Shown: positions 35,911 to 58,722, counted from the stretch's first letter. The stretch: 64,000 bases of DNA from Capsulimonadaceae bacterium (GCA_965215505.1 OZ244065.1:3104001-3168000); one strand, 5' to 3'. Notes: generated from the sequence alone by a model not told the origin. Translations and numbers: made by a program.

Positions 35911-38900
35911 CTACGGCCCGGCGCTGACGGCGGTGGCGCTCCACAGGTTGCCCGGCCCGTTGTCGGTGTAGGGGCCGTAGCCCGCCACGGTGAAGTTGAA
36001 CGAAGGGTCCAAGCCCCACAGCATCGCCCGATTGTCCGTGTTGCCCCAGAGCAGGTGCGAGAGGCCGTCGGGACCCGTCGCCAGGGCGGTGGCGCTCCAC
36101 AGGTTGTTCGCGCCGTTGTCCGTGTACGGCCCGTACCCGGCCAGCGTGAAGTTGAACGCACTGTCTACGTTCCAGAACATGGCCCGCCGGTCGGTGTTGC
36201 TCCACAGCAGGTGGGTCAGGTTGTCCGGCCCGACCGACGCGCCCGTGACGCTCCACTTGTTCTGGGGTGCGCCGTCCGTGTACGGCCCGTAGCCCGCCAG
36301 CGTGAAGTTAAAGGAGCTGTCCACGTCCCAGAGCATGACGCGCCCGTCGGCGTTGTTCCAAGCGATCCGGCTCTTGCCGTCCGGCCCGGTCGCAAGGGCC
36401 GCCGCCGACCAGAGGTTGCCGGAGTCGCCGCTGACGGAGGTGTCGGTATAGGGGCCGTAGCCTGCGAGGCTGAAGTTGAACGCGCTGTCCACGTTCCACA
36501 GCATGACGCGGTGGTCGGTGTTGTTCCACAGCAGATGCACGACGTTGTCCGGGCCGACCGAAACCGCCGTCGCGCTCCACTTGTTGTTCGCCGCCCCGTC
36601 GGTGTAGGGGCCGTAGCCGGCAAGGCTGAAGTTGCCGCTGTCGTCCACCGTCCACAGCATGACGCGCCCATCCGTGTTGTTCCACAGAAGGTGCGAAACG
36701 CCGTCCGCGCCCGTCGCCACCGCCGTCGCGTGCCAGACGTTCTGCGGCGCTCCGTCCGTGTACGGCCCGAAGCCGTTCAGCGTGAAGGAGCCGTCGCCGG
36801 CCACGCTCCACAACATGACGCGACCGTCACTGTTGTTCCACAGAAGGTGCGTGTGCGTGGGGGGCTGCACCGCCAGCGGAGCGGAGGCGGTGGCACCGCC
36901 GGAGACGGCCGAGACGGTGATCGTCGCGGACGCAGTCACCGGGCGCGTGGCGACGGCGAACGTGGCGCTCGTCCGCCCCGCCGCGACGGTGACGCTGGCC
37001 GGGAACGAGGCCACGTCGGAGTTGCTGCTGGACAGCCAGACGGTGACGCCGCCGGCCGGTGCGGGCGCGGACAGCGTGACGGTCCCGGTCGTGGCCCCGC
37101 CGCCGACAACCTGGGCAGGGGAGAGCGTCACCAAGGCGGGCGCGGGCTGGGTGTTCGGGATCAGCGAAGTGCGGACCAGGAAGACCTGGCCGCCGCTGCG
37201 AAAGGCAAGCCCGTCCGCGCCCCAGCGGATCAGGCTGCTGGGGCCGGCGTAGGGGGTCGCGGCGACGCCGGAGACAGTCAGTGAGCCAACCGGGAGGAAG
37301 GTGTTGGGGTCGAAGGCTTGGATGAGGGCCGTCCCGTCATTGCCAAAATTGGGACTGCTCACAAAGAAGACGCGGCCGTCGGCGACATCCGGCTGCACAT
37401 TCGCGTTGTAAGGTACACCGGAGAACGTGCCGACCAGGCTGGCCGCCTCGGGGTCTATGACCTTGCCGTTTGTGGAGAAGAGGAGGCCGCTGTCGAACTT
37501 GATTGCCCCGCCCGGCGCTCCTCCGGTCGGCACATCTCCGACGGCGACGCCGCTGCTGCTGACGTTCAGGCGCACCAAGTTGCCGTTCGAGCCGTAGAGG
37601 CGCGAGGGCGAGGCGGAGAACGCCAGTGTATCAATTTGGTAGGGGTACTGGCCGAGGGCGTTGGGACGCTGGACGCCGTTGTCATAGATGCCCAGGCCGA
37701 CCTGGCCCGGACCGAACACATAAATCCGCTCCGAAATGGCGACGGAGTTCACACTGCCGGGGAGGACCTGGATGTCATTCGGGTAGAAAGGCCCGTCAAA
37801 GCTCGCGTCGCCGCCGAGATGAAACAGCGGATCAGCCGAGTCCGTTGGCAGGTCCAGGTGACGGACGGCCGCCGCGCCGTTCAAGCCGACGAACAAAGAC
37901 TGCCCATTGTCGGAGAGGGCGAGTTTACCCGGCTCGCTGCCGATGAACACCGGGGCATCCATCACGCCCGTCAGTGGGTCGAACCCCACGATGCTGTTGC
38001 CGGGGCGGCCCCCTGGCACGACGGCACCGCTGGGGATGCTAGCATAGATCTTTGCGGTCACGCGGTCATAGATGAGGTCGTTGGAAGGAAGGTTCAGGCT
38101 GCGAACGCCGGCCGGGTAGCCAGGGTCACCAGCCGTATCCTGCACGGCCAGGGTCGCCTGACAACTCTGGGAACCATAGGCGGCGGTGACGCTGAAATTC
38201 GTGGTGGTAGTGACGGTGTTCGCGAGGAGCGGGAATGTCGCGGTCCGCGCGCCCGCCGGGACCGTGACGGAGGCGGGAACGGTGATCGCCTGCGTGTTAG
38301 TGGCGGAGAGAGTTACGGTGGCCCCGTCCGCCGGCGCGGACTGGGTCAGGGTGACGGTCCCTGTGGCCGCGGCCCCTGCGGCAAGGTTCGTCGCGCTGAG
38401 GGTCAGTGAGGCCAAGCCGGGAAAGCTGCGGGAGTCGATCAGGAAGAGCTGCCCACCACTGGTGCGGAACGCAAGCCCGTTCGCGCCGTAGGCGATGAGG
38501 TTGTCAGCCCTCCCGGAGACGCCCGAAAGGGTGAGCGCTCCCACGGGCCGGTAGGTGGCCGTGTCGTACTCGAAGATCTGGGCGGTGCTGCTGTTCCCCG
38601 TCGGGTCTCCGGTCAGGAAAAAGACGCGGCCGTTCGCGGCGTCGGAAGCAAGCGAAGTGCTGGAGCCGCCGAAGTAGGTCGTCGGGAACCCCGTGAAGCT
38701 GCCCAGGAGCGCTTGGGCGGTCGGATCAACCGCCTGCCCTGAGCTGCTGTAAATCAAACCGCCGTCGAACGAGAGGTCGGCGTTCGCCAGGTAGGCATAG
38801 GAACTCGTGTTGACGATGCCAGTTGCATTGGGGGTCATCGTGTAAAGGGTAGAGCCATAATCCCCGGTGCCGTACAGAACGCCTGTGGCGGGGTTAAACT

Positions 38901-39435
38901 TGATGAAGTAGGCACCGTCGTGGTCGGGAGTCGTGGTGGGTCTCTGGACGGCGTCGTCGAAGACCGCTACGCCGGCGATGTCCGGCGACACTCCCGTATA
39001 CCGGCGGGCGACCGCGACTGAGTGAGGGTTGCCGGGCAGGACGGCAAGGCCGGCGGCATTATAGTTGCCGAAAAACGAGGCACTCCCCAGGCTGAACTGC
39101 AAGCCCGCCGTCTGAGTCGGCAGGCTGACGCGGCGGACGGCGGCGGCACCATCCAGGCCGACATACAGGAACTGCCCGTCGTCCGAGACGGCCAGACGAT
39201 TCGGCTCGCTCCCGACGAACACCGAGGGGCCGACCGTGCCGGTGACCGGATCAACCGGCGTGATGCTGTTGCCGCCGACCCCGACGCTGCTGGGGACGCT
39301 GGCGTAGATCTTCGCGGTGTGCGCGTCATAAATGATGTCGTTCGTGACGAGTGAAACCTGGCGCACGTTCTGCGCCTGCGCTGTGGACAGCGGGGCGCAC
39401 GCCAGAGCGGCGAGGAGGGGGGCGATCTTTTTCAA
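35911..39435 (-). CDS. Array member 1: signal peptide + 2x(beta-propeller + Ig-like) + six-repeat SAGP C-terminal module (35911-~36858)
   Basis: TTG start giving MKKIAPLLAALACAPLSTAQA. Duplicated NDIIYD..TAKIYAS/GSEP..LA.SD propellers and TGTVTL..PAPAGG..VTV Ig units; six HLLWNN-DGRVMLW..GPYTD repeats. Confidence 0.85.
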   Translation of the reverse strand: MKKIAPLLAALACAPLSTAQAQNVRQVSLVTNDIIYDAHTAKIYASVPSSVGVGGNSITPVDPVTGTVGPSVFVGSEPNRLAVSDDGQFLYVGLDGAAAVRRVSLPTQTAGLQFSLGSASFFGNYNAAGLAVLPGNPHSVAVARRYTGVSPDIAGVAVFDDAVQRPTTTPDHDGAYFIKFNPATGVLYGTGDYGSTLYTMTPNATGIVNTSSYAYLANADLSFDGGLIYSSSGQAVDPTAQALLGSFTGFPTTYFGGSSTSLASDAANGRVFFLTGDPTGNSSTAQIFEYDTATYRPVGALTLSGVSGRADNLIAYGANGLAFRTSGGQLFLIDSRSFPGLASLTLSATNLAAGAAATGTVTLTQSAPADGATVTLSATNTQAITVPASVTVPAGARTATFPLLANTVTTTTNFSVTAAYGSQSCQATLAVQDTAGDPGYPAGVRSLNLPSNDLIYDRVTAKIYASIPSGAVVPGGRPGNSIVGFDPLTGVMDAPVFIGSEPGKLALSDNGQSLFVGLNGAAAVRHLDLPTDSADPLFHLGGDASFDGPFYPNDIQVLPGSVNSVAISERIYVFGPGQVGLGIYDNGVQRPNALGQYPYQIDTLAFSASPSRLYGSNGNLVRLNVSSSGVAVGDVPTGGAPGGAIKFDSGLLFSTNGKVIDPEAASLVGTFSGVPYNANVQPDVADGRVFFVSSPNFGNDGTALIQAFDPNTFLPVGSLTVSGVAATPYAGPSSLIRWGADGLAFRSGGQVFLVRTSLIPNTQPAPALVTLSPAQVVGGGATTGTVTLSAPAPAGGVTVWLSSSNSDVASFPASVTVAAGRTSATFAVATRPVTASATITVSAVSGGATASAPLAVQPPTHTHLLWNNSDGRVMLWSVAGDGSFTLNGFGPYTDGAPQNVWHATAVATGADGVSHLLWNNTDGRVMLWTVDDSGNFSLAGYGPYTDGAANNKWSATAVSVGPDNVVHLLWNNTDHRVMLWNVDSAFNFSLAGYGPYTDTSVSGDSGNLWSAAALATGPDGKSRIAWNNADGRVMLWDVDSSFNFTLAGYGPYTDGAPQNKWSVTGASVGPDNLTHLLWSNTDRRAMFWNVDSAFNFTLAGYGPYTDNGANNLWSATALATGPDGLSHLLWGNTDNRAMLWGLDPSFNFTVAGYGPYTDNGPGNLWSATAVSAGP

Positions 39436-39541
39436 GGGACGTTCTTTCGTTGGGAAGGGGCCGATGGGGCAGCCGACACGGGGCGACGGGCTCAGGGCGG
39501 GCGCGGCCACGACGGTCGCACCTCTCCTCCCTTTATCATAC

Positions 39542-39557
39542 AGCACGAACCATGCCA
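39542..39557 (-). promoter_or_regulatory. Sigma54-like promoter for member 1
   Basis: Minus strand TGGCATGGTTCGTGCT (GG-N10-GC). Confidence 0.5.
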
Positions 39558-39606
39558 AAACGGCCGGAACCAGGCAGAAATACGAACTAATTTACCGGCG
39601 CGGCCT

Positions 39607-42174
39607 CTACGGCCCCGCCGAGACGGCGGTGGCGGCCCACAGGTTGCCGGGGTCGAGGCTGACGAAATCGTCCGTGTACGGGCCGTAGCCGGCGACGGTG
39701 AAGTCGAACGCGGAGTCCACGCCCCACAGCATAGCCCGGTGGTCGGTGTTGTTCCACAGGATGCGGCTGACGTTGTCCGGGCCGGTCGCCAGGGCCTTCA
39801 CCGACCACAGGTTCTGCGGCGCGTCGTCGGTGTAGGGGCCGTAGCCCGCCAGCGTGAAGCTGAAATCGGCGGCGACGTTCCAGAACATGGCCCGGCGGTT
39901 CGAGTTCCCCCACAGGAGGTGCGTCCCATTGTCCGGGCCGACCGAAACCGCCGTGGCGTGCCAGTCGTTGCCGGGGTCGTAGGAATGGGGATCGGGGATG
40001 ACGGAGTCGTCGGTGTAGGGACCGTACCCGGCATAAGCCAGCAGGCTGAAGCCGCCGTCCACGTCCCAGAGCATGGCGCGGTGGTCGGCGTTGTTCCACA
40101 GGATGCGGCTGACGTTGTCCGGGCCGGTCGCAAGGGCCGTGGCCCTCCAGGGGTTGTAGGACTGGCCGCCTCCCACGCTGTCGTCGGTGTAGGGGCCGTA
40201 CCCGGCCAGCGTGAAGGAGGACTCGTCGGTGCCACCGTTCCAGAGCATGACGCGGTTGTCCGTGTTGTTCCACAGCAGGTGGACCGCGTTGTCCGGCCCG
40301 ACCGAGATCGCCGCCGCGCTCCACAGGTTCGTGGGGGAGCTGTTGACCGAGGTGTCGGTGTAGGGGCCGAAGTAGGCGGCGCCGCTGACGCCGCCCGCGT
40401 CGTCCACGGTCCAGACCATGACCCGGCCGTCGGTGTTGTTCCACAGGACGTAGCTGCGGCCGTCCGGCCCGGTCGCCAGAGCGGTGGCGCTCCACTTGTG
40501 TGTCTTCAGGGGGGCGTTGTCGGCGTAGGGGCCGAAGCCGTGGGGTGTGAAGGTGCCGTCGCCGGCCACGCTCCACAGCATGACGCGCCCGTCGGCGTTG
40601 TTCCAGAGCAGGTGCGTGTGACCGCCCGCGACTCCCGCCGCGCCCTCATAGGCCCCGATGGTGGGCGGGTCCGGGCGACCCTTGCCGTCCTTGTCGGTGG
40701 TGACGCCGCCGAGGAACACGCCCCCGCCGATGCAGGGCGAGCCGGCCCGGAGGTGCAGGTCGCCCCCGGCGGCATTGACGAACAGCGGGTCAGCATCGAT
40801 CACGATGCCGCCTGGCCTAATGTTCCCGCTCAAATAGCCGCCCTGTATGTCACAGCCGTCACAGGAGACGAGATCCACAGTCCGGGCGATCTCTCCGCCC
40901 CTGTCCCCATAGACGATACAGTCGGAGGGGCCGTGCCCATAAAGGCCGTTGTAAAAGCCGCCGCCGTCAGAGGCGGCGTTGCCGGTGATGGTGCAGCTCG
41001 TCACGGAGCCGCTCCCGTTGTAAACGCCGCCGCCGACGGCGGCCGTGTTGCCGCTGATCGTGCAGTCGCCGATCACGCCGACGCTGAAGACGCCGCCGCC
41101 GTTGTAAACGCCGCCGCCGCCGCCGCTGGCCGTGTTGCCGCTGATGGCGCAGCGCGTCACCGTGCCGATGCTGGAAACGCCGCCGCCGTTGCCGCCGGCC
41201 GTGTTGCCGCTGATCGTGCAGCCCGTCACCGTGCCCTCGTTGGTGAGGCCGCCGCCCGCCCCGCCGTTCGGGGAGACGCCGCTGGCCGTGTTCCCACTGA
41301 TCGTGCAGCCCGTCACCGTGCCGCTGTTGTCCATGCCGCCGCTGGAAGGCGCGGTGTTCTCGCTGATCGTGCAGCCCGTCACCGCGCCGCCGTGGAAGAC
41401 GCTGCCGCCGTTGAAGACGCCGCCGCCGCTGACGCCGGCGGTGTTGCCGCTGACCGTGCAGTGCGTCAGCGTGCCCGCGTCGTAGCTTGCAACGCCGCCG
41501 CCGGAGGTGGTGGCCGTGTTACCCGTGATCGTGCAGTCCGTCACCGCGTCGTAGCCGTAGACGCCGCCGCCGACACTGGCCGTGTTGCCGCTGACGGCAC
41601 AGCCCGTCAGCGTGCCCTCGTTGTAGACGCCGCCGCCGAGGTTTGCCGTGTTGCCGGAGATCGTGCAGTCCGTGAGTGTGCCGTAGTTGGCGACGCCGCC
41701 GCCGCCGGAGCCGGCGGACGTGCTGCCGGTAATCGCGCAGTGCGTCACCGTGCCGTAGTTGTAGATGCCGCCGCCGCTGTCCGTGGACTCGTAGCCGTTC
41801 CTGACGGTGAAGCCGCTGACCACCGCGCCCCGCTCGCCGTCCCGCAGGGTGAAGCCCCGGTGGTTGGCGGACGCCGAGCCGCCGCAGTCAATGATCGTCC
41901 GGGCCGGGTCGCCGCTGGCGGACCGGACCGTGAGGCTCTTGCCGCCGAAGTCAATGTCGCGGTTGCCCGGCCCGCCGTAGGTGCCGTCAGCCACGAGGAC
42001 CGTGTCGCCGCTGGACGCAGCGTTGACAGCGGCCTGGATGGTCGGGTAGCCGGCCGTCGGGACGTTGAGCGTGGCGGCATGGCCGGACGCGGCGAGGAAG
42101 GTCAGAGCCAGCAGGGCCAGGAGCGGCCCGCCGGGGGGGAGCAGACGGCGCGGGCGAGTGGTTTCAGGCGGCAT
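39607..42174 (-). CDS. Array member 2: signal peptide + right-handed beta-helix (CTISGNTA..GGG repeats) + six-repeat SAGP module (39607-~40620)
   Basis: YPTIQAAVNAASSGDTVLVADGTY, many ~22-aa T.CTISGNTA-GGGV.N repeats and ADPLFV..DLHL..GSPCI. Confidence 0.88.
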   Translation of the reverse strand: MPPETTRPRRLLPPGGPLLALLALTFLAASGHAATLNVPTAGYPTIQAAVNAASSGDTVLVADGTYGGPGNRDIDFGGKSLTVRSASGDPARTIIDCGGSASANHRGFTLRDGERGAVVSGFTVRNGYESTDSGGGIYNYGTVTHCAITGSTSAGSGGGGVANYGTLTDCTISGNTANLGGGVYNEGTLTGCAVSGNTASVGGGVYGYDAVTDCTITGNTATTSGGGVASYDAGTLTHCTVSGNTAGVSGGGVFNGGSVFHGGAVTGCTISENTAPSSGGMDNSGTVTGCTISGNTASGVSPNGGAGGGLTNEGTVTGCTISGNTAGGNGGGVSSIGTVTRCAISGNTASGGGGGVYNGGGVFSVGVIGDCTISGNTAAVGGGVYNGSGSVTSCTITGNAASDGGGFYNGLYGHGPSDCIVYGDRGGEIARTVDLVSCDGCDIQGGYLSGNIRPGGIVIDADPLFVNAAGGDLHLRAGSPCIGGGVFLGGVTTDKDGKGRPDPPTIGAYEGAAGVAGGHTHLLWNNADGRVMLWSVAGDGTFTPHGFGPYADNAPLKTHKWSATALATGPDGRSYVLWNNTDGRVMVWTVDDAGGVSGAAYFGPYTDTSVNSSPTNLWSAAAISVGPDNAVHLLWNNTDNRVMLWNGGTDESSFTLAGYGPYTDDSVGGGQSYNPWRATALATGPDNVSRILWNNADHRAMLWDVDGGFSLLAYAGYGPYTDDSVIPDPHSYDPGNDWHATAVSVGPDNGTHLLWGNSNRRAMFWNVAADFSFTLAGYGPYTDDAPQNLWSVKALATGPDNVSRILWNNTDHRAMLWGVDSAFDFTVAGYGPYTDDFVSLDPGNLWAATAVSAGP

Positions 42175-42252
42175 GGCAGTAGACTCCTTGATCGGCGCGC
42201 GGGCGGCGCAGGGGGCTTGTCCCCGCTCCCCGCCATATTTACGGTCCCGCGT

Positions 42253-44316
42253 TCACGGCCCCGCCGAGACGGCGGTGGCGCTCCACAGGTCGCCCGGCCC
42301 GTTGTCGGTGTACGGGCCGTACCCCGAGACGGTGAAGTTGAACGCGCCGTCCATGCTCCACAGCATGGCCCTGTCGTCGGTGTTGCCCCACAGGATGCGG
42401 CTCAGGCCGTCCGGACCGGTCGCCACCGATGTGACGCTCCACAGGTTGTTCGCGCCGTTGTCATTGTACGGGCCGAAGCCCGCCAGCGTGAAGGCCCCCA
42501 GGCCGTCCAGGTTCCAAATCATCATCCGCCGGTCCGCGTTGCCCCAGACGAGGTGGATCTTCTCGTCCGAGCCGACCGAGACGGCCTGGGCGCTCCAGAC
42601 GTTCGCGGGCGAATTGCTGACGAAGCTGTCGGTGTACGGCCCGTAGCCCGTCACGCCGAACTGGAAGGCGGGGTTCACGTTCCAGAGCATGACGCGCCCG
42701 TCCACGTTGTTCCAGGCGATGTGCGATTCGTTGTCCGGCCCGGTGGCGAGGGCGACGGCGCTCCACAGGTTGCCGGGGCTGCCGTTGACGGAGTTGTCCG
42801 TGTACGGTCCGAATCCGGCCAGGGTGAAGCTGAAATCCTGGGCGACGTTCCACAGCATGACCCGGTGGTCGGTGTTGTTCCACAGCAGGTGGACCACGTT
42901 GTCCGGGCCGACCGAAACCGCCGTCGCGCTCCACTTGTTCTGGGGTGCCCCGTCCGTGTACGGCCCGTAGCCCGCGTAGGTGAAGCCGCCGCTGTCGTCC
43001 ACGGTCCAGAGCATGACGCGCCCGTCCGTGTTGTTCCACAGCAGGTGCGAGAGGCCGTCCGCGCCGGTCGCCACCGCCGTCGCGTGCCAGACGTTCTGCG
43101 GCGCTCCGTCCGTGTACGGCCCGAAGCCGTTCAGCGTGAAGGAGCCGTCGCCGGCCACGCTCCACAGCATGACCCTGCCGTCCGTGTTGTTCCACAGAAG
43201 GTGCGTATGTGGGGGCAGGACCGTGTGCGTCACATGGCCGTCGGCATAGGCGGTCGTCGGGGAGCCGTCGGCATAGGGCGGCGTGTCCTGGAAGAGTACA
43301 GTGGTAGCCGGGTCAGTGATGGAGGCGAGGCTGACGCCGCTGAGGGCGGCGTTCGGGACAAACGGCTGGCCGCGCGTGTTGGAGAGAGGTTTGAGGCTTC
43401 TCGTATATGGTGCGAGGGCTGCCTGGAACTCCGACACGTTCCCCATCGGCGGGTAGACCTCATCATAGTCCTGAGTGTACTGCACGATGGCGATAAAGAG
43501 TTGTTTCGCGCGGCTCGTCGTGGTGACGTTCGGGTCGCCGAACTCGATGCCGCCGCGTTCCAGGTGGCCGTCCGCATAGGCGATTGTGGGAGCGCCGTCT
43601 ACATAGGGGGCGGTGTCTTGGATGAGGATTGTATGGATCGGGTCGGGGACGGCGCTGAGGAAGACGCCGCTGAGGGCGGCATTAGGGACGAACGGCTGGC
43701 CCGTAGGCGAGTAGAAGATGCGGTGACTGTGAGTGAAAGGATAGACTGCGGTTTGTAGTTCATCCAGCGTGTGCATCGGCGGATATGTCTCGTCGGCATC
43801 CTCCGTGTACTCGATTATGGCAATCGCCACGGCCTTCTCCCGCTCGGTGATGATGGCCGTCGCGTCGCCGTACTCGACGCCGCCGTGTTCCACATGACCG
43901 TCCAGGAACACGACCGTGGCCTGGCCGTCCCCATGCGGCGCGGAGTCGCGGACCACCTCGATGACATCCACATCGGTCGTGTAGGGCGGATACGTTCCTC
44001 GGCTGAGGGCGGCGTTGGGCGTGTAGGGCAGGCCGGTATCCGGGCAGCGGAATACGGAGGCATCCCCGACATACGGCATCAGCGCCGCCTGGAACTCCTG
44101 CGCGTTCCCCATTGGCGGGAAGTTCTCGTCGTTGTCCTGGGCATACCGGGTGAAGGCCGCTTGGAGCCGGTGCAGATTGGCCGCGCAGGCGGCGGTGGTG
44201 TCCGCCCCCGATGCCATGCGACGGGCCGTGCCGAGCCACTGCCCGATCACCAGGAAGGCCAGGAGGCCCAGCCCCAGAAGAACGGCCCCCTCGGCCAGGA
44301 ATGACGGTTTACGCAT
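42253..44316 (-). CDS. Array member 3: N-terminal TM + three DUF1559/H-X9-DG-like units + six-repeat SAGP module (42253-~43209)
   Basis: Start MRKPSFLAEG at 44316; three copies of Y.QD.DE.(F/Y)PPM...PNAALS...(FL/YA)DGH. Confidence 0.8.
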   Translation of the reverse strand: MRKPSFLAEGAVLLGLGLLAFLVIGQWLGTARRMASGADTTAACAANLHRLQAAFTRYAQDNDENFPPMGNAQEFQAALMPYVGDASVFRCPDTGLPYTPNAALSRGTYPPYTTDVDVIEVVRDSAPHGDGQATVVFLDGHVEHGGVEYGDATAIITEREKAVAIAIIEYTEDADETYPPMHTLDELQTAVYPFTHSHRIFYSPTGQPFVPNAALSGVFLSAVPDPIHTILIQDTAPYVDGAPTIAYADGHLERGGIEFGDPNVTTTSRAKQLFIAIVQYTQDYDEVYPPMGNVSEFQAALAPYTRSLKPLSNTRGQPFVPNAALSGVSLASITDPATTVLFQDTPPYADGSPTTAYADGHVTHTVLPPHTHLLWNNTDGRVMLWSVAGDGSFTLNGFGPYTDGAPQNVWHATAVATGADGLSHLLWNNTDGRVMLWTVDDSGGFTYAGYGPYTDGAPQNKWSATAVSVGPDNVVHLLWNNTDHRVMLWNVAQDFSFTLAGFGPYTDNSVNGSPGNLWSAVALATGPDNESHIAWNNVDGRVMLWNVNPAFQFGVTGYGPYTDSFVSNSPANVWSAQAVSVGSDEKIHLVWGNADRRMMIWNLDGLGAFTLAGFGPYNDNGANNLWSVTSVATGPDGLSRILWGNTDDRAMLWSMDGAFNFTVSGYGPYTDNGPGDLWSATAVSAGP

Positions 44317-44358
44317 TGTGCTTCCCTTCCGCGTCCGATCTCCGAACGTGGTGAGGGC

Positions 44359-44387
44359 AGTATAGCACGGACGCGCGGCATTAGCAA
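44359..44387 (-). promoter_or_regulatory. Sigma70-like promoter for member 3
   Basis: TTGCTA-17bp-TATACT with TGn extension. Confidence 0.6.
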
Positions 44388-44416
44388 GGAGGCAGCGGAA
44401 AGGCTTCCGGGACCGA

Positions 44417-48494: not shown

Positions 48495-48499
48495 TCCCC

Positions 48500-48528: not shown

Positions 48529-48581
48529 ACGCCCGGTTTCCCGCTCCCGCCCCCGCCCCCGCCGATGCTCCCGCGCCCCGT

Positions 48582-50186: not shown

Positions 50187-50281
50187 GAAGCACTTACTCC
50201 TAGGACCGGATGAGATCGGACAAGATCGGACAAGATCGGTTGCGATGGCCGGTCGCGGCGGCGGGCCGGGACCGCAGGGCC

Positions 50282-50353
50282 ATTATAACACGGACGGGCG
50301 AACGGCGCAAGGAAGCCGGACGACAAAAACGGGCGCGGCCTCTGCCGCGCCCG
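50282..50353 (-). promoter_or_regulatory. Terminator (for member 7) + sigma70 promoter (for member 6) module
   Basis: Hairpin CGGGCGCGGC-CTCT-GCCGCGCCCG with U-tract (50326-50353); TTGCGC-17bp-TATAAT (50310-50282). Confidence 0.75.
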
Positions 50354-50375
50354 CTCCGACCCTTCCGCGCCTGGT

Positions 50376-53300
50376 TCACGGCCCGGCGGAAACTGCGGTG
50401 ACGCTCCACTGGTTCTGGTCAGCGTTATCGGTGTACGGCCCGTAGCCCGCCACGGTGAAGTTGAACGCCGAGTCCACGCCCCAGAGCATGGCCCGGTAGT
50501 CCGTGTTGGCCCACAGCAGGTGGTTCAGGCCGTCCGGCCCCGTCGCAAGGGCCGCGGCCGACCACAGGTTGCCGGGCGCGTTGTCGGTGTAGGGGCCGTA
50601 CCCGGCCAGCGTGAAGCCGAAGGAGCTGTCCACGTTCCAGAGCATCGCGCGCCGGTCGGTGTTGCTCCACAGCAGGTGCGTCACGTTGTCCGGCCCGACC
50701 GAAACCGCCGTGGCGCTCCACTTGTTCTGCGCCGCCCCGTCGGTGTACGGCCCGTAGCCGGCCAGGGTGAAGCTGAAGTCCGGGGCCACGTCCCAGAGCA
50801 TGACGCGCCCGTCGGTGTTGTTCCAGGCGATCCGGCTGACGTTGTCCGGCCCGGTGGCAACCGCCGCCGCCGACCAGAGGTTGTTCGCGCCGTTGTCGGT
50901 GTACGGCCCGAACCCGGCCAGGGTGAAGTTAAAGGACGGGTCCACGTTCCAGAGCATGACGCGCCCGTCGGTGTTGTTCCACAGCAGGTGCATCACGTTG
51001 TCCGGCCCGACCGAGACGGCCGTGGCGCTCCATTTGTTCTGCGCCGCCCCGTCGGTGTACGGCCCGTAGCCGGCCAGGGTGAAGCTGCCGGCGTCGTTCA
51101 CGGTCCAGAGCATGACGCGCCCGTCCGTGTTGTTCCACAAGAGGTGCGAAACGCCGTCGCCCCCCGTCGCGACGGCCGTGGCGCTCCACTTGTTCTGCGA
51201 GGCACCGTCGGTGTACGGCCCGAAGCCGTTGAGCGTGAAGGAGCCGCCGGGGGCGACGCTCCAGAGCATGACGCGCCCGTCGCCGTTGTTCCACAGAAGG
51301 TGCGTGTGTGTGACGCCCCCCTGGATGGTGAGGGACAGGGCGGCGGAGGTGCCGCCGCCGGGGCCTGGGTTCACGACGGTCACGGGGTACACGCCGACAG
51401 GAAGGAAGACGGACGACGGCAGGTAGAAAGTGAGCTGCGTCCTGTCGTCGCTGAGGCTCTCCGGGGAGAACACATGGCTGCCGAGGTGGATGACCGAGTG
51501 GTGCATGAAGTTGCCGCCGGTGAGCGTCACGGAGGAGCTGCTCCGGATGGGCTGCATGCTGCTCGGGCTGATGCCGGTGAGGACCGGCACGGGGTAGGGG
51601 CCGTCGGTGATGGCTTGGGTGGTGCCGGCCGTGCCGCCGCCGGGGGCGCTGTTGGTCACGCTGACGGTGACGAGGCCCGGCGCAGCCGCGTCCGGGCCGG
51701 AGGCGATCAGGCTGTAGCCGGAAATGAAGGCCGTGACCCGCGTCGGCGAAACATAGGTCGTGCTGAAGTTGAAGCCGCCCCAGTTGACGATGGTGCTGGG
51801 CGTGAACCCCGTGCCGTTGACGGTCAGGGTGAAGCCGGGGAGTCCGTCGGCGACAAGCGAGGGCGGGCTGATGCTCGTGATGGTGGGCGCTGGGTTGACG
51901 ACCGTGAGGGTCGGCTGGGGGGTACTCTGCGCCGCCCCGCGCTGGCCGGGGGTGTAGGCGTAGAACGTCAGGATCGTCCCGACGGTCATCTGGGCGGCCG
52001 GGAGGCGCACGGTGATCCGCGTGTGGTCGGAGGACGCCGACAGCACGGTGAGAGGGGTCTGACCGGGGGCGACGTAGCCGAAGGCGATCTGCGTCTCCGG
52101 GTAGAGGCCCGTGCCGGCCAGGGTGAGGGTGGTATCCGGGCTGCCGGCGGGCAGGGAGGCGGGGCTGACTGAGGTGAGGGTCGGGACGGGGCGCACCGGC
52201 AGGACGACATACGGCCCGGACCCGGCCCGGCCGTCCGGGTTCGTGACGGTGACGGTGTGCGTCCCCGCCGTAAGGTCCGCAGACGGGATGTGGGCGATGA
52301 TCTGCGTCTCCGCGTAGACGGTCGCCGTCAGGGGGACGCCGTCATAGGTGACGACGGCCCCGACCTGGAACCCGGTCCCCGTGATGTCCACCGTCTGGTC
52401 CGGGTCGCCGGCGTCCGGCGGCTGGGGCTGGATGAGCTGGATCGTGGGGGCGGCGGGGGCGGCCCGCCCCGCCGGCGTGAGCAGTAAGGCGTGAAAGCCA
52501 GACGCGGGCTGCCCCGCCGGCTGCCCGATCGCGGCGATCTGCCCGACGTCATTGATGCCGACGGCCTCCCACAACTGGAATGCGCCCGCGTTGGGTGCCT
52601 GTATGTGCAGGTTGAGGTCGTACATCAGCCCGGCTTGTTCCAGGAAAGCGCCCGAAGGCCCGTTGGAAAGGTAGCTCGTGCCCACCAGGTCCTTGGACGA
52701 GTTCAGCGCGGTGGGGTAGGTGCTGAAGGCGGGGAAAGCGGAGTTGCTCAACGAGTAGGGGTCGAAGAACAGCCCGCCGAGGTCCACGGCGCTTATGGTC
52801 GTGTCCGCCGGGTTGAAGGCGGACACATTGGCACTCGCCCAGAAGACCTGGGCGCTTGCCGGCAGTTGTCCGTCCGTCAGCGCCCCCGGAGGCGGCACGG
52901 GCGAGTCCGTGCCGGTGCCGGAGACGAAGTGCCCCGCGGTGGCCCCCAGGTGATCGGGAACCCAGACGAAGGGGTTGACGGACACCGTCGGCGTGGAGAA
53001 GTTCCCGTAAATGTCACCGTGCGCGTCCGTGCGTAGGAGTACGAACCTGTACCCAGAGTACAGCCCGTTCGGGTCGAAACCGGGCGGGTCGCCCAGCGGA
53101 ATCGAGTTCTGCCCGTCGTAAAGAGTCAGCACCCCGTTCAGGAGGCCGATGACACGCCCCGAGTCGTCCAGCAGGGACGGCACCAGCAGGCCGAGGTCCT
53201 TCATCTGCGGGTTGGAAGGGGCGCCGCCCGTGCCGCCCGGCGTCCACAGGAAGCCATGCGGGGGGTCGATGTTGCGGTAGCCCTGGGGGGTCAGGGTGAG

Positions 53301-53837
53301 CGCGTCCGCCGTCCCGAGGACCTGTCCGTGGTTGTTGATGGCGACGGCGGTCGTGCCGATGTCGGCCTGGCTGTTCGCCACCAATGTTCCGAGGTCCTGG
53401 ATCGTGCCCGATCTGTCATCCGGCGCAGGCGTCCACAGGAAGGCGTGGCTGACGGACACTAACTGCCCGTCGCTGGAGAACGAAGCTCTCACCTCGGACT
53501 GCCCGGTGATCTGCCCCTGGTCGTTCATCGCCACGGCGGCCCGGAAACCCTCGGCCGGGTAGGAGCCGGCCGGCCGGTTCTCCGGCAACGCCCCGACGTC
53601 TATCATGCCTCCTTGCGGACTCCAAAAAAAGATGTGGCCCGGCAGGCTCAGGTTGGTGGTCGAGGGGGTGGCGCTGCCGAATACCTGACCCGCCTGGTTG
53701 ATCCCCTGGGGCTGGGCGGAACCGCCCGGCGTGAGGCTCCCGAGGTCTTGAAGGGTGTACTGCGGGGCGGCGGCAGCAACTGGAAGGGCGGCGAGGCAGC
53801 AGAGCGAGAGCGCGGCGAGCAGCCGGAGGGGGGACAT
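50376..53837 (-). CDS. Array member 7: signal peptide + HAF-type extracellular repeats + four IPT/TIG-like domains + six-repeat SAGP module (50376-~51308)
   Basis: YTLQDLGSL..GINQAGQV and HAFLW..DLGTL repeats; P.(L/I)TS.SP...T.TG.(G/N)F IPT units. Confidence 0.87.
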   Translation of the reverse strand: MSPLRLLAALSLCCLAALPVAAAAPQYTLQDLGSLTPGGSAQPQGINQAGQVFGSATPSTTNLSLPGHIFFWSPQGGMIDVGALPENRPAGSYPAEGFRAAVAMNDQGQITGQSEVRASFSSDGQLVSVSHAFLWTPAPDDRSGTIQDLGTLVANSQADIGTTAVAINNHGQVLGTADALTLTPQGYRNIDPPHGFLWTPGGTGGAPSNPQMKDLGLLVPSLLDDSGRVIGLLNGVLTLYDGQNSIPLGDPPGFDPNGLYSGYRFVLLRTDAHGDIYGNFSTPTVSVNPFVWVPDHLGATAGHFVSGTGTDSPVPPPGALTDGQLPASAQVFWASANVSAFNPADTTISAVDLGGLFFDPYSLSNSAFPAFSTYPTALNSSKDLVGTSYLSNGPSGAFLEQAGLMYDLNLHIQAPNAGAFQLWEAVGINDVGQIAAIGQPAGQPASGFHALLLTPAGRAAPAAPTIQLIQPQPPDAGDPDQTVDITGTGFQVGAVVTYDGVPLTATVYAETQIIAHIPSADLTAGTHTVTVTNPDGRAGSGPYVVLPVRPVPTLTSVSPASLPAGSPDTTLTLAGTGLYPETQIAFGYVAPGQTPLTVLSASSDHTRITVRLPAAQMTVGTILTFYAYTPGQRGAAQSTPQPTLTVVNPAPTITSISPPSLVADGLPGFTLTVNGTGFTPSTIVNWGGFNFSTTYVSPTRVTAFISGYSLIASGPDAAAPGLVTVSVTNSAPGGGTAGTTQAITDGPYPVPVLTGISPSSMQPIRSSSSVTLTGGNFMHHSVIHLGSHVFSPESLSDDRTQLTFYLPSSVFLPVGVYPVTVVNPGPGGGTSAALSLTIQGGVTHTHLLWNNGDGRVMLWSVAPGGSFTLNGFGPYTDGASQNKWSATAVATGGDGVSHLLWNNTDGRVMLWTVNDAGSFTLAGYGPYTDGAAQNKWSATAVSVGPDNVMHLLWNNTDGRVMLWNVDPSFNFTLAGFGPYTDNGANNLWSAAAVATGPDNVSRIAWNNTDGRVMLWDVAPDFSFTLAGYGPYTDGAAQNKWSATAVSVGPDNVTHLLWSNTDRRAMLWNVDSSFGFTLAGYGPYTDNAPGNLWSAAALATGPDGLNHLLWANTDYRAMLWGVDSAFNFTVAGYGPYTDNADQNQWSVTAVSAGP

Positions 53838-53908
53838 CGTTTGATCCTTTCGGAACCGATCATTGCAAGAGAATCCCCTTGCATGGGCTTTCGGACCAGG
53901 GCACGGCC

Positions 53909-53982
53909 ATTATAGCACGGCAGGCAAGGGAGCGCAAGCAAGCCGGACAACAGAAAACGGGCGCGGCATCTGCCGCGCCCGT
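53909..53982 (-). promoter_or_regulatory. Terminator (for member 8) + sigma70 promoter (for member 7) module
   Basis: Hairpin ACGGGCGCGGCA-TC-TGCCGCGCCCGT (53957-53982) with U-tract; TTGCGC-17bp-TATAAT (53937-53909). Confidence 0.75.
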
Positions 53983-54006
53983 CCGTGTCTGCCGCCGAAG
54001 AGGCGC

Positions 54007-56238
54007 CTACGGTCCGGCGCTGACGGCGGTGACGCTCCACAGGTTGCCCGGCCCGTTGTCCGTATAGGGGCCGTAGCCGGCCACCGTGAAGTCGAAGGCG
54101 CTGTCCATGCCCCACAGCATCGCCCGGTCGTCCGTGTTATTCCACAGGACATGGCTCAGGCCGTCCGGCCCGGTCGCGAGGGCGGCGGCTGTCCAAAGAT
54201 TCAGGGGAACACCGTCCGTGTAAGGGCCATAGCCGGCCAGCGTGAAGCCGTAGGAGGCGTCCACGTCCCAGAACATCGCGCGCTTGTCCGTGTTGCTCCA
54301 CAACAGGTGCGTGGTGTTGTCGGGGCCGACCGAGACGGCGACCGCCGACCACAGGTTCTGCGCCGCCCCGTCCGTGTACGGCCCATAGCCGGCGAGGCCG
54401 AAGCTGAAATCGGCGGGGACGTTCCAGAGCATGACGCGGTTGTCCGTGTTGTTCCAGACGATGCGGCTGACGTTGTCCGGGCCGGTCGCAAGCGCGGCGG
54501 CCGTCCAGAGGTTTTGGGGGGTGCCGTCGGTGTAGGGGCCATAGCCGGCCAGGGTGAAGGTGAAGTCCGGCGCGACGTTCCACAGCATGACCCGGTGGTC
54601 GGCGTTGGTCCACAGCAGATGCACGACGTTGTCCGGCCCGACCGAGACGGCCGTCGCGCTCCACTTGTTCTGCGGTGCCCCGTCCGTGTACGGCCCGTAG
54701 CCCGCCAGCGTGAAGGTGCCGGCGTCGTCCACGGTCCAGAGCATGATGCGCCCATCCGTGTTGTTCCATAGAAGATGGGAAGCGCCGTCCGGGCCGGTCG
54801 CGACGGCGGTGGCGCTCCACTTGTTCTGGGGTGCGCCGTCTGTATAGGGGCCGAAGCCGTTGAGCGTGAAGGAGCCGTCGGGGGCCACGCTCCACAGCAT
54901 GACGCGCCCGTCACTGTTGTTCCACAAGAGGTGCGTGTGGCCGGAGGCGGGCGGAACGCCCCCGTACTCATACGCGCCGATGTCGGGGGGGCCAACGCGG
55001 GCCGCGCCGCGCTGGTCCGTCGCGGGCGCACCGGTCGCCGTCCCGGCGTCGATGCAGGGCGTGCCGGGCAGCAAGGCCCTCGTCTGGGTCAGGCCGCCGT
55101 TGCCCTGCAAGGGGCCGAGGCCGGGGTCGGCGCTGAGGTTGCCGCCGCCGTCGGTGTAGAGCGGCCCGCTCGCCGGCCCGCGCCCCGGCCCGTAGACGGC
55201 GGACGCGGCGATGTCGCAGTGGCTGATTGTCAGGCTGTTGCCCGCACCGCCCTGGTTGAAGAAGATCTCCTCGCCGCCGCCGCCGGGAGCCGCATCGCCG
55301 GAAAAGATGTCGTTGGTGAGCGTAGTCGTGCCACGGATGATCGCGATCGCCCCGCCGCCGCCGTAGACGTCGTCGTTGGTGGTGGCCTGGTTGCCGGTGA
55401 AGGTGCAGTTGGTCACGGTCAGGGTGCCATCCACGTTGGAGATGGCACCGCCGCCGTCGGTGCCGGCGACGTTGCCCACGAGGGTGCAGTCGGTCAGGGT
55501 CAGGTGGACGCCGCCATTGCCGTTGTAGATGCCGCCGCCGGGGCCACCGGAGGCGTTCCCCGAGAGCGTGCAGCCGATCATCGTGACCGGGCCATAGGTG
55601 AACAGGCCGCCGCCGACCTGCGAGGCGGTGTTATTGGCGAAGGTACAGCGGATCGCGGTCAGGTGGCCGTCGTTGAGCATCCCACCGCCGCTGCTGGCCG
55701 TGTTGTTCTGGAAAACGCAGTCCGTCATCGTGAGCGTCCCGAAGCGGTTCAAGAGGCCGCCACCGATGCCGGCCGTGTTGTTCTGGAAGATCAGGTGGCT
55801 GATGGAGGAGGTGCCGTTGTCGCTGCCGATGATCAGCTCCTCTTGGTCCACGTTGGCCGGGGCGAGGCTGCCGTCCAGTACCACGCCCGCCGGGGGGCCT
55901 TGGATGGTCACGCCGGTGTTGGTGATGAGCGCGGAGGAAACCAGGATGGTGCGCCGGGCGGCGAACACGGCGGGATCAAAGGTGATGACGTCGCCGTCGC
56001 CGTCGGCGACGGAGGCGTCGGTGGCCGCGCGCAGCGACCCCGGCCCGCTGTCGGCGACCGTGGTGACGACGAGGGTGGCGGCGCGGCCCGCCCCGGCCAG
56101 GCCGGAGCAGAGGACGAGCATCGGCAGGAGGGTCCAGGCGGGGCACCGCCGGTGAAGGGGAGTGGCGGGGCGGGTGCCTTCGGGAGTGGCCCGAGAACCG
56201 CTCTGAGGAACGCCAGGGGAAGTGACTGGTGACAGCAT
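54007..56238 (-). CDS. Array member 8: paralog of member 4 (beta-helix/choice-of-anchor-Q-like) + six-repeat SAGP module (54007-~54939)
   Basis: [31 protein letters not shown] shared with member 4; start ATG 56238 after AAAGGA. Confidence 0.85.
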
Positions 56239-56322
56239 TGGGAAAGTCCTTTCGGGGCCGCCGGTGGCTCCCGCGCCGAGATCTGGGGTTCCGCCGTCGG
56301 GGCGGACCCTGGTAGTCTTGCC

Positions 56323-56338
56323 TGCATAAACCGTGCCA
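56323..56338 (-). promoter_or_regulatory. Sigma54-like promoter for member 8
   Basis: Minus strand TGGCACGGTTTATGCA, in the same context (..GCAGGCAA) as the member 4 site. Confidence 0.6.
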
Positions 56339-56359
56339 AGTGCGGGCAAGAGGGCGGGG

Positions 56360-56375
56360 TGTGACAAGAGTCACA
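56360..56375. promoter_or_regulatory. Consensus CRP box upstream of member 8
   Basis: TGTGA-CAAGAG-TCACA. Confidence 0.6.
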
Positions 56376-56423
56376 GGTGGGGCTGGCAGCGCAGCAGGGG
56401 GCTGCGGGCAAGGGAGCCGGGCG

Positions 56424-56454
56424 ACAAAACGGGCGCGGCCTTCGCCGCGCCCGT
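56424..56454 (-). terminator. Array-type intrinsic terminator after member 9
   Basis: ACGGGCGCGGC-CTTC-GCCGCGCCCGT with U-tract. Confidence 0.78.
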
Positions 56455-56481
56455 CCTTGCTCTTCGCTCCCTCAGAGGCCC

Positions 56482-58722
56482 TTACGGCCCGGCACTGACG
56501 GCAGTGGCGCTCCACAGGTTGTTCGCGCCGTTGTCGGTGTACGGGCCGTAGCCCGCCACGGTAAAGTCGAAAGCGTTGCTCACGCCCCATAGCATGGCCC
56601 GGTTGTCCGTGTTGGCCCACAGGATGTGCGAGAGGCCGTCCGGCCCCGTCGCCACGGCGGTGGCACTCCACAGGTTGCCGGGCGCGTCGTCGGTGTACGG
56701 CCCGTACCCGGCCAGCGTGAAGCTGAAGTCCGGGGCGACGTCCCAGAACATCGCCCGCCGGTCCGTGTTGCCCCACAAGAGGTGGGTCACATTGTCCGGC
56801 CCCGCCGAGACGCCCACCGCCGACCACTTGTTGGCCGACGGGTCGCCGCCCACGCTGCCGTCCGTGTACGGCCCGTAGCCCGCGACGCCCAGGACGTTCG
56901 ACCCGCCCGGCCCGCCCAGCGTCCACAGCATGACGCGGTTGTCGGTGTTGTTCCACACGACACGGCTCACGTTGTCCGGCCCGGTCGCGAGGGCGGTCGC
57001 CGACCAGACGTTGCCGGGGTCCGGGCTGACATAGTCGTCCGTGTACGGCCCGTAGCCGCTCAGGCCCAGGAGGTCCCCCTGGGCGTCCAGGTCCCAGAAC
57101 ATCATGCGTCGGTCCGTGTTGCTCCACAGCAGGTGCGTCAGGCCGTCAGGCCCGACCGAGATGCCGACGGCGCTCCACAGGTTGCCGGGGCTGCTGCTGA
57201 CATAAGTGTCCGTGTACGGGCCGTAGCCCGTGACGCTCAGGACAGCGCCCTGGGCGTCCAGGCTCCAGAGCATGACGCGGCGGTCCACGTTGTTCCAGAC
57301 GAGTCGGCTGGTGCCGTCGGGGGCGGCGGCGAGGGCGGTGGCGTGCCACTTGTTGTTCGGGTCGCTGCTGACGTAATCGTCGGTGTACGGGCCATAGCCG
57401 GCGTAGGTGAACGTGCCGTCCTGGGCGACGTTCCAGAGCATGACGCGCCCGTCGGCGTTGTTCCACAGCAGGTGCGTGGTCGAAGGCACAGGGATCTTGA
57501 AGACCGTGCCGGTGTTGTTGGCTCCGCCCGCTGCGGTTGTGCCATATAGAAAGCCATCACCAAGAACAAGCGGAGAGGACACAGGATTAGCACCATCGGT
57601 GACACCACTGAAGTCGTACAGGACTTGGAAGCCCGTGCCATCTGGATGCAAGCGGTAGACACTCCCGAGGCCGCTCGTGCCGCCGTTATTAGTCAACCCG
57701 CAAAGAGATCCATCGCCAAGGACAATGAGTGAGGCCGAAGGCTGCCCATCAGGAAAGGTGAGAAGTGTTTGGAAGCCCGTCCCATCCAGCTTGATTTTGA
57801 AAATGGTTCCGCAGCCACCTCTAGCGTTGGCGAGCTGGTTTGTGCCGTACAAGTAGCCATCCCCCGGAGCAAGTAGGGTGGAACTTGGGTAGGCCCCGTC
57901 AGTGTCACCACGAAAATTGTAAAGCGTTTGAAAGCCCGTGCCGTCTGGATGCAAGCGGTAAATACTGCCGAGGCCGTTCTGAAAACCGGAACTGGTTGTA
58001 CCATAGAGAAACCCATCACCAGGAGCGACCAGCGCGCTCTGTGGGCCGGAGCCGTCACCGCCGCTAAAATTATGCACCACTTGAAAGCCCGACCCATCTG
58101 GATGCAAGCGGTAGACGGTCCCGCCATTCAGGGCACCATTAAAATCGGCCGTGCTATAGAGAAAGCCATCCCCAGGGGCAATCAACGCAGCCTGTGGCCC
58201 ACTGCCATCTATCTCGATGCCGTTTTGCCTATCTTCAAATCTGTAGATCGTTTGGTAGCCGGTTCCGTCGAGTCTGATCCGGAAAATGGTTCCATAACCG
58301 AAGGCGGCACCGTGTTCGGTCGTGCCGTACAAGTAGCCATCGCCCGGAGCAAGTAAGGAAGCAGCCGGATTGGCTCCATCAGCGCCGGTTTGACCACTGC
58401 TGGTGAAAAAATAAAGTGTTTGAAAGGCGGACCCATCGGGCTTGACCTTGAAGACCGAGCCTACGCCGTATGCCCCGCCGTACTGAGTGGTGCCGTACAG
58501 AAAGCCGTCGCCAGGCGCAATCAGTGAACATGTGGGGCTAGCACCATCAGCGCTGAGGCCAGTGCTGGGATCAACTGCGAACGTGTGCAGGGTCGTCAGC
58601 GGCGGACTAGCGGCCTCTGCACCTATCGCAGAAACCATAACAAGGAGTAGGCAAAGCAAGGCCGTGTTCAGCGACCGAAGGAAGAGGATGGCGCTAATGC
58701 GTATGAGGAGACAGACGTGCAA
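56482..58722 (-). CDS. Array member 9: signal peptide + GloVer/TIGR03803-type tandem repeats + six-repeat SAGP module (56482-~57480)
   Basis: About 7 repeats of DGA.P...L..PGDG.LYGTT..GG..G.G..(F/Y)....DG.GFQTL. Start codon uncertain. Confidence 0.85.
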   Translation of the reverse strand: MHVCLLIRISAILFLRSLNTALLCLLLVMVSAIGAEAASPPLTTLHTFAVDPSTGLSADGASPTCSLIAPGDGFLYGTTQYGGAYGVGSVFKVKPDGSAFQTLYFFTSSGQTGADGANPAASLLAPGDGYLYGTTEHGAAFGYGTIFRIRLDGTGYQTIYRFEDRQNGIEIDGSGPQAALIAPGDGFLYSTADFNGALNGGTVYRLHPDGSGFQVVHNFSGGDGSGPQSALVAPGDGFLYGTTSSGFQNGLGSIYRLHPDGTGFQTLYNFRGDTDGAYPSSTLLAPGDGYLYGTNQLANARGGCGTIFKIKLDGTGFQTLLTFPDGQPSASLIVLGDGSLCGLTNNGGTSGLGSVYRLHPDGTGFQVLYDFSGVTDGANPVSSPLVLGDGFLYGTTAAGGANNTGTVFKIPVPSTTHLLWNNADGRVMLWNVAQDGTFTYAGYGPYTDDYVSSDPNNKWHATALAAAPDGTSRLVWNNVDRRVMLWSLDAQGAVLSVTGYGPYTDTYVSSSPGNLWSAVGISVGPDGLTHLLWSNTDRRMMFWDLDAQGDLLGLSGYGPYTDDYVSPDPGNVWSATALATGPDNVSRVVWNNTDNRVMLWTLGGPGGSNVLGVAGYGPYTDGSVGGDPSANKWSAVGVSAGPDNVTHLLWGNTDRRAMFWDVAPDFSFTLAGYGPYTDDAPGNLWSATAVATGPDGLSHILWANTDNRAMLWGVSNAFDFTVAGYGPYTDNGANNLWSATAVSAGP

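Follow-up and report, generated by a model that had tools for sequence, protein, structure and literature searches.

The systems closest to the one treated here are the swappable anchors of exported proteins, such as SLH, dockerin, PEP-CTERM and the C-terminal domain (CTD) of type IX secretion. In PEP-CTERM and LPXTG signals a hydrophobic helix and then a basic tail come after a C-terminal motif, and the type IX signal is a short Ig-like domain that is strictly C-terminal. We have analysed a stretch of 64,000 nucleotides (hereafter the window) from the genome of a Capsulimonadaceae bacterium (GCA_965215505.1 OZ244065.1:3104001-3168000). It contains nine consecutive open reading frames (ORFs) on the minus strand, from 35911 to 58722, numbered here as genes 1 to 9, that code for putative exported proteins with different N-terminal regions (the cargo) and one common C-terminal module. 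Behind cargo of the choice-of-anchor Q, CoaZ, GloVer and HAF kinds this module sits in the same slot as the anchors mentioned above and, like them, it is found in many copies per genome. It differs from them in being a predicted propeller of 310 residues that is also found at the N-terminus of proteins and alone. We infer, with moderate confidence, binding to a ligand and retention: the propeller would bind multivalently outside the cell and thereby retain or target proteins exported by the Sec route.

As judged by its Pfam score, the module belongs to PF07483 (W_rich_C), a family that has neither a described fold nor a characterised function. In the accessible part of the single paper retrieved by text search (PMC2605481), the family appears only in a table of protease domain architectures, and among the texts that the literature search reached no paper was found describing the module or the array. 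In accordance with this family, the module is Trp-rich (three invariant Trp in each 52-residue repeat) and mostly C-terminal on exported proteins, as it is in all nine cases here. The Pfam model has 105 positions, equivalent to about two repeats, whereas the full unit in this array is a predicted propeller of six repeats. FG-GAP and FG-GAP_3 are extracellular four-stranded propeller repeats of ~50 residues, as in the module, which would have six blades instead of the usual seven. The propeller lectins (the six-bladed fucose lectins AAL/SapL1, PLL/CV39L and the UmbA spokes) would share with it a fold of six or seven blades, aromatic-rich repeated sites, multivalency and secretion, but their identity to the module is only 13-14%.

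A six-repeat module in nine proteins

The ORF listing and the translations reproduced all nine stop positions given in an earlier note on this DNA (35911, 39607, 42253, 44417, 46827, 48582, 50376, 54007 and 56482). All the translations terminate in the common module, which runs from (H/T)THLLWN to TAVSAGP and the stop codon. The G+C content of the window is 62-72%, and the values at third positions in the nine reading frames (0.85-0.95) support these frames. A scripted repeat search found six repeats and a module length of 310-337 residues in each of the nine genes, as the note had proposed from inspection. Such agreement is far beyond chance. The spacing of the repeats is usually 52 residues, with loop insertions stretching it to 69. 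When a profile of the module was compared with the whole window it detected exactly the nine ORFs of the array and no others.

The nine modules are 69-86% identical to the gene 4 copy, with a mean column identity of 75%. Invariant positions across the nine copies amount to 165 of the 310 residues of the gene 4 module, among them three Trp in every repeat and both the N-x-D-G-R and the G-P-Y-T-D loop. The best-conserved loops in the nine copies are WNNTDGR and GYGPYTD..N.W. In distant members of the family (522 repeats) LW, G, W, YGPY, W.A and G.D remain conserved.

Between genes, repeats that occupy equivalent positions are 74% identical, compared with 61% for repeats at different positions within a gene (about 60% for different positions in general), indicating that the six-repeat unit was duplicated whole. 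Over the 36 module pairs, synonymous divergence (dS) was 0.43-0.73 and the ratio of non-synonymous to synonymous divergence (dN/dS) 0.18-0.56. In the module tree the copies of the window interleave with those of a related genome, and the cyclophilin genes pair. By these sequence comparisons the modules are old, maintained paralogues under purifying selection, and the dS values together with the interleaved tree rule out recent gene conversion among them.

From the likely start codons, all nine proteins have a hydrophobic N-terminal stretch according to a crude rule, in agreement with the signal or transmembrane N-terminus that had been attributed to each of them. Eight of these N-termini resemble cleavable signal peptides, and that of gene 3 resembles a membrane anchor or pilin-like segment. 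The same rule detected a hydrophobic N-terminus in 171 of the 228 family proteins that begin with Met.

Family identity and predicted fold

The earlier note did not recognise the module as a named family. Actually, the gene 4 module alone passes the cutoff of PF07483 (28.5 bits, E-value 1.6e-6; cutoff 26.2), and the full-length array proteins remain just under it (16.4-23.9 bits). Among the relatives, 14 of 21 match PF07483 at E-values up to 1 (best 2.2e-12). Scores of relatives reach 49.4 bits, and a hand count found the precomputed label of this family on 28 of 120 listed close relatives. The module is a new and well-delimited example of a known, uncharacterised family.

AlphaFold2, run for the gene 4 copy with the alignment of the nine modules, gave a model (pLDDT 82.4, pTM 0.83) with 24 strands in six groups of four, which predicts a six-bladed, four-stranded beta-propeller. 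Of 240 family proteins scanned, 237 had repeats, and six was the modal number, present in 137 of them. Judging from loop lengths, the long GPYTD...W loop would be the crossing between consecutive blades, the small-residue strand WSATAVS the innermost strand of every blade, and the terminal TAVSAGP strand would shut the propeller ring. Such a closure would account for the exact and invariant C-terminus without a sorting tail.

Foldseek comparison of the model with the PDB retrieved only generic propellers (lactonases, G-beta, nucleoporins, WD40 scaffolds and lectins), with TM scores of 0.47-0.62 and identities of 10-17%. The lectin propellers among them were SapL1 (TMq 0.55), CV39L (TMq 0.54) and UmbA4 (TMq 0.60), the last one described in its entry as a lectin spoke bound to a target-cell surface polymer. 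Sequence profile searches of the PDB gave marginal WD40 matches with E-values of 0.0047 or worse. Neither the two profile searches nor Foldseek found a close solved relative of the module in the PDB. Membership of the WD40 family was rejected given these E-values and a single Pfam WD match that was far below its cutoff.

The closest ESM Atlas clusters carry the labels FG-GAP, FG-GAP_3 and W_rich_C together (scores 0.85-0.94), and FG-GAP_3 is touched by 2 of the 21 relatives (best E-value 1.8e-4). The module pattern DG-x-x-H-LLW...G-R-x-x-LW resembles the FG-GAP_3 consensus, and the Asp-rich calcium loop of FG-GAP is replaced in the module by GPDGxSH. The window modules had no match to the FG-GAP models (PF01839, PF13517) in Pfam scans of the full-length proteins and of the module alone. 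We take the FG-GAP-like nature of the W_rich_C propeller as a lead.

These similarities bear on one alternative explanation, namely that the propeller serves for protein-protein scaffolding or oligomerisation, building an extracellular complex or layer of the cellulosome or S-layer kind without any glycan binding. FG-GAP propellers bind proteins in integrins, and the feature look-alikes of the module carry FG-GAP labels. WD40-type scaffolds are the nearest solved proteins in both the sequence and the fold searches, and dockerin occurs on 4 of 120 listed proteins related to the beta-helix cargo. However, the WD40 similarities are marginal (E-values of 0.005 or worse) and nothing seen in the window qualifies as a receptor or scaffold candidate that has a complementary repeated domain. 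We consider a scaffold of this kind improbable.

Two matches to holins were also rejected, both of them incompatible with an all-beta propeller located behind a signal peptide. One was to the Pfam family Phage_holin_9 (PF23809) over residues 111-202 of the gene 4 module (34.4 bits, cutoff 27). The other was to PHROG 565, annotated as holin, over the propeller repeats (E-value 9e-9, with no single stretch passing). Composition or repeats probably drive these matches, and the holin families may contain mis-assigned repeat sequences. Several relatives of the module bear a precomputed PF23809 label.

Distribution, position and partners of the module

We searched 1.84 billion representative proteins, which stand for clusters at 50% identity, with the module profile. 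At an E-value limit of 0.001 it matched 1320 clusters, of which 702 remained at 1e-10 and 316 at 1e-30, numbers with which the module cannot be called lineage-specific in the narrow sense, as had been suggested. A genome scan found 12 true relatives, all in Armatimonadota assemblies, one of them (L012) with the module cut off at the end of the contig. The scan was based on two peptide patterns, both narrow, and hence sets no limit to the taxonomic range of the module. Its sole locus from outside the Armatimonadota, which is cyanobacterial (L013, 4108-6375, plus strand), codes for an ordinary WD40 protein that is not a relative, so that the genome scan gives no evidence for the module outside the phylum. 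By hand count, 17 of 120 listed relatives were located on one contig of 3.5 Mb. Tandem pairs and triplets of module genes were found in a related genome (L005, L007).

The position of the module was recorded in 158 proteins, the nine of the window plus the best 149 matches other than gene 7 of the window. It was C-terminal in 130, N-terminal directly after the signal peptide in 12, alone in 11 (mostly fragments) and internal in 5. One relative, P0211, is a complete secreted protein that consists of a signal peptide and the module alone. According to the earlier note, the module would not be an anchor if it were often N-terminal or solitary, and such placements were found, only in a minority (12 and 11 of the 158). 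This minority favours a binding domain over a position-dependent signal, and the position independence across the sample fits a binding domain as well. The note had also placed the module in the slot of an anchor. The C-terminal location in 130 proteins, where other lineages place accessory or anchor domains, sustains this part of the proposal, although not the sorting role that was attached to it.

The partners of the module include enzymes (cyclophilin, sedolisin/S8 proteases, trypsin, GDSL lipases, M23 peptidase, GH16 and polysaccharide lyase) and binding or repeat domains (malectin with RHS, RCC1, the BamB-like PQQ_2, Sortilin, LGFP, Golvesin_C and Ig-like domains). Adhesin-like beta-helices make up a third group. 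Together with the families found in the array, they confirm that the module is joined to highly varied exported cargo. So broad a spread is what one would expect of a general retention or targeting tag rather than of a substrate-specific accessory domain.

Proposed function of the module

In the reading that we prefer, the Sec-exported proteins would fold their last 310-337 residues into a six-bladed propeller of PF07483 with an FG-GAP-like look, acting as an extracellular domain for multivalent binding. A conserved loop surface (WNNTDGR and GYGPYTD..N.W) would be displayed six times, once by each of the near-identical repeats, to a repeating ligand. The likeliest ligand would be a glycan of the producer's own envelope, capsule or matrix, and unlike enzymes and adhesin-like proteins would in this way be kept at, or directed to, one common site. 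The producer's envelope or capsule is preferred as ligand mainly because of cargo such as cyclophilin. The role of the propeller would resemble that of non-covalent anchoring and targeting domains (SLH, carbohydrate-binding modules (CBMs) and lectin propellers), and the module is probably not a C-terminal secretion signal. A general tag for retention or targeting is favoured over such a signal by how broad the cargo is, by how many copies a genome can have and by the cases in which the module is N-terminal or solitary.

Known sorting signals were considered individually. A signal of the PEP-CTERM or LPXTG type was discarded, as the nine proteins end in ...TAVSAGP inside the last modelled strand and have no hydrophobic tail. 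Type IX CTD cargo was discarded as well, the module being a predicted 310-residue propeller with an N-terminal location in 12 of the 158 proteins and an internal one in 5, and the neighbouring barrel (see below) reaching only 21.8 of the 90 bits required for PorV. Pfam and NCBIfam scans of the nine proteins had no match to SLH, dockerin or other named anchoring families. No dedicated processing machinery for the module was identified, and sortase, exosortase or type IX components were not seen in the window. We consider dedicated sorting machinery unlikely. The earlier description of the array as a new surface-display or sorting system stays hypothetical, the module being a predicted folded propeller of this size that also occurs N-terminally, internally and, in P0211, on its own.

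The list of partners also suits another explanation, in which the propeller is a CBM-like substrate-targeting module that aims enzymes and adhesins at an external polymer or at the surfaces of other organisms (plant, fungal, algal or bacterial walls). GH16, polysaccharide lyase, malectin with RHS, trypsin and sedolisin are all found among the partners of the relatives. N-terminal and stand-alone secreted forms occur, the Foldseek match UmbA4 is bound to a target-cell surface polymer according to its entry, and the window also encodes GH18 and GH43 enzymes. On the other hand, the cyclophilins (gene 6, L005 and several relatives) and the BamB-like PQQ propellers have no obvious foreign-polymer purpose, and a recognisable glycoside hydrolase was found in none of the nine window cargos by the Pfam and NCBIfam scans. 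Many enzyme-CBM fusions have long Pro/Thr-rich linkers, whereas those between cargo and module are very short in the array proteins. Substrate targeting is a possible explanation, to which we give a rather low probability.

Several points weigh against the retention domain that we propose. The GH16, polysaccharide lyase and malectin partners would be just as compatible with substrate targeting. Lectin propellers match the model no better than WD40 proteins, lactonases and nucleoporins do, so that the fold alone is no indicator of sugar binding. No known sugar-binding motif or lectin family was matched in the Pfam and NCBIfam scans of the array proteins. The proposal also presumes that the conserved loops would form six pockets on one face of the propeller. 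Finally, the signal peptides were called with a crude home-made rule.

A neighbouring barrel and lipoprotein

Directly upstream of the array, P0250 (59191..60441, minus strand) codes for a FadL/TbuX/PorV-like outer-membrane beta-barrel of 416 residues. A further 29 nucleotides upstream is P0251 (60471..61226, minus strand), a predicted lipoprotein with an LSGC lipobox and without family match, and the two genes are probably co-transcribed. The model of P0250 is a beta-barrel (pLDDT 82.2), and Foldseek matched it to FadL, TbuX and the PorV chains of type IX translocon entries with E-values from 2.4e-7 to 7e-6 and TM scores of 0.39-0.49. Homologues of P0250 carry PF13729 (TraF_2). Against the PorV/PorQ family model it scored 21.8 bits, with a cutoff of 90. 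The gene order of lipoprotein, barrel and module genes recurs in L005, with the barrel 88% and the lipoprotein 49% identical. Furthermore, module proteins seemingly share several small contigs with homologues of the barrel whose identity goes down to 62%, as judged by equal contig sizes (10767, 15768, 29323, 33221, 55722 and 107185 bp). Within the DNA fetched, the barrel was seen at 1 of the 12 related module loci.

In the accessible parts of two papers (PMC5562754, PMC12618676), PorV is presented as a shuttle for cargo with a C-terminal domain. The propeller might similarly be a recognition tag for an outer-membrane partner made of the P0250 barrel and P0251, which would shuttle or hold the cargo as PorV does in type IX secretion, and this would be a sorting system in the sense of the earlier note. 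The Foldseek matches of the barrel model, the PF13729 domain of its homologues, the conserved gene order in L005 and the apparent co-occurrence on the same small contigs agree with it, as does a hairpin that P0250 shares with genes 7-9. However, the score with the PorV model and the TM scores are low, and FadL-type barrels usually carry small hydrophobic molecules. The P0250/P0251 pair has its own terminator and the array genes their own promoter-like sites. In the DNA fetched the barrel was found at a single related locus, and the synteny is between fairly close relatives and may be inherited. Besides, a 310-residue propeller that is found also N-terminally is unlike type IX signals. We regard a barrel-dependent shuttle as unlikely and keep P0250 as a lead for a surface partner of the module.

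Genes and cargo of the array

For several of the genes the longest ORFs begin too early, and the likelier starts are internal. The cargo was labelled by Pfam and NCBIfam scans of the nine full-length proteins, and these family searches bore out the beta-helices predicted for genes 2, 4 and 8, the cyclophilin of gene 6, the HAF and TIG/CoaZ repeats of gene 7 and the GloVer repeats of gene 9. All the coordinates that follow are on the minus strand.

Gene 1 (35911..39435, module at 35914-36855) belongs to an ORF open to 39558, with the likely start at TTG 39435, giving LKKIAPLLAALACAPLSTAQA. Its cargo is formed by two duplicated units of ~420 residues (42% identity, E-value 8e-82), with weak YncE and choice-of-anchor T matches as weak hints of a propeller. 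Gene 3 (42253..44316, module at 42256-43209) probably starts at ATG 44316 within an ORF open to 44667. Its product combines an N-terminus of the membrane-anchor or pilin-like kind with three internal repeats of ~110 residues that are 37-56% identical; the match to the H-X9-DG model had an E-value of only 0.08. For these two genes the earlier note had given the labels "double propeller+Ig" and "triple DUF1559-like". The two-fold and the three-fold repetition were confirmed, whereas the names themselves were not, those matches being so weak, and they can be considered plausible. In gene 3 the propeller may have been joined to a divergent repeat related to pseudopilins. Each of the three cargo repeats finishes in a motif of the type DGH(V/L), behind the pilin-like hydrophobic N-terminus.

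Gene 2 (39607..42174) has a signal peptide, a right-handed beta-helix with a choice_anch_Q match below cutoff, and the longest module (39610-40620, 337 residues, with loop insertions). Gene 4 (44417..46573, likely start ATG 46573) codes for a signal peptide, a beta-helix with a choice-of-anchor Q domain (84.5 bits) and the 310-residue module used for the model (44420-45349). Gene 8 (54007..56238, starting at ATG 56238 or 56121, module at 54010-54939) has the same type of beta-helix/choice-of-anchor Q cargo (76.3 bits), and the cargos of both genes are paralogues with 67% identity. Gene 6 (48582..50186, module at 48585-49514) has a signal peptide and a cyclophilin-type peptidyl-prolyl isomerase (120.5 bits). 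Gene 7 (50376..53837, module at 50379-51308) has a signal peptide, HAF repeats and four TIG/CoaZ repeats. Gene 9 (56482..58722) has a signal peptide, seven GloVer repeats (274 bits over seven stretches) and the most divergent copy of the module (56485-57480).

Gene 5 (46827..48494, module at 46830-47810) has a signal peptide and a cargo of ~195 residues (34-228) for which the Pfam and NCBIfam scans were empty, just as it had been left unassigned before. The closest ESM Atlas clusters to this cargo are hypothetical proteins of ~200-245 residues (score 0.90). In a look-alike cluster (score 0.85) PEP-CTERM is present on 14% of the members, which can be taken only as a lead.

Relatives of the gene 4 beta-helix cargo were numerous, with 4643 matches among the 8000 candidates scored. 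Elsewhere they bear dockerin (4 of 120 listed), Ig-like or PKD domains instead of the module, indicating that the cargo families do swap their C-terminal partners, as the earlier note held for cargo of the types found in the array. Among 114 proteins new to this listing the propeller was found on one, and a simple regular expression, which may miss real tails, detected PEP-CTERM-like tails in none of them.

Transcription signals

Promoter-like sites were located before gene 9 (58814-58786, minus strand), gene 5 (48528-48500, minus strand) and gene 3, and hairpin terminators after genes 1, 7, 8 and 9. A single operon as the sole mode of transcription was discarded in view of these sites and terminators, and the array genes would be, at least partly, independent transcription units, as far as such sequence signals indicate. 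A GC-rich hairpin followed by a T-run is present in four copies on the minus strand, at 50329-50354 (gene 7), 53957-53982 (gene 8), 56429-56454 (gene 9) and 59141-59166 (P0250). The four copies have an identical 11-bp stem and are placed 20-40 nucleotides 3' of the stop codons, when none would be expected by chance. They may be copies of one terminator that these genes share, or else of a small palindromic element that is repeated here.

Other genes in the window

At the other side of the array, a transglutaminase-like protein (34285-35127) and a Crp-family regulator (35124-35822), both on the plus strand, converge on the end of gene 1. They are preceded by genes for an HTH_3 protein and a PIN-domain protein (33025-34238, plus strand) that could form a toxin-antitoxin pair. 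A protein with a secretin domain (3804-5000, minus strand) adjoins one of 1028 residues with adenylate/guanylate cyclase, STAND NTPase and TPR domains (5004-8087, minus strand). The presence of a secretin indicates that the organism has an outer membrane and a type II or type IV pilus-like system. A gene unrelated to the array codes for a protein with DUF6785 and DUF6784 (14084-16261, plus strand, 443 bits), and upstream of it, on the minus strand, are two M16 peptidase genes (9561-12812) and a BT1/MFS transporter (8108-9604).

Implications for the family and for Armatimonadota

PF07483, which stands in Pfam without fold or function, gains from this array a confident fold prediction (a six-bladed propeller), a family size and a positional grammar, in which the module is mostly C-terminal behind many kinds of exported cargo and is expanded and arrayed in Armatimonadota. 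Were the module just an accessory binding domain, the array would be an example of ordinary modular architecture. If it is the retention domain that we propose, it would explain how Armatimonadota, a poorly studied phylum, hold exoproteins at their surface, improve the annotation of hundreds of "hypothetical" exoproteins and provide a compact display tag. A more far-reaching possibility, to which we assign only a small likelihood, is that the W_rich_C propeller is a general non-covalent surface-display tag in Armatimonadota, and perhaps in other phyla, that binds an envelope or capsule glycan or docks on the conserved neighbouring FadL/PorV-like barrel. Each genome would then use one multivalent propeller to keep dozens of Sec-exported enzymes, foldases and adhesins on the cell, and this propeller would be a new class of anchor in the role of PEP-CTERM, LPXTG, SLH or the type IX CTD, and the first function for PF07483.

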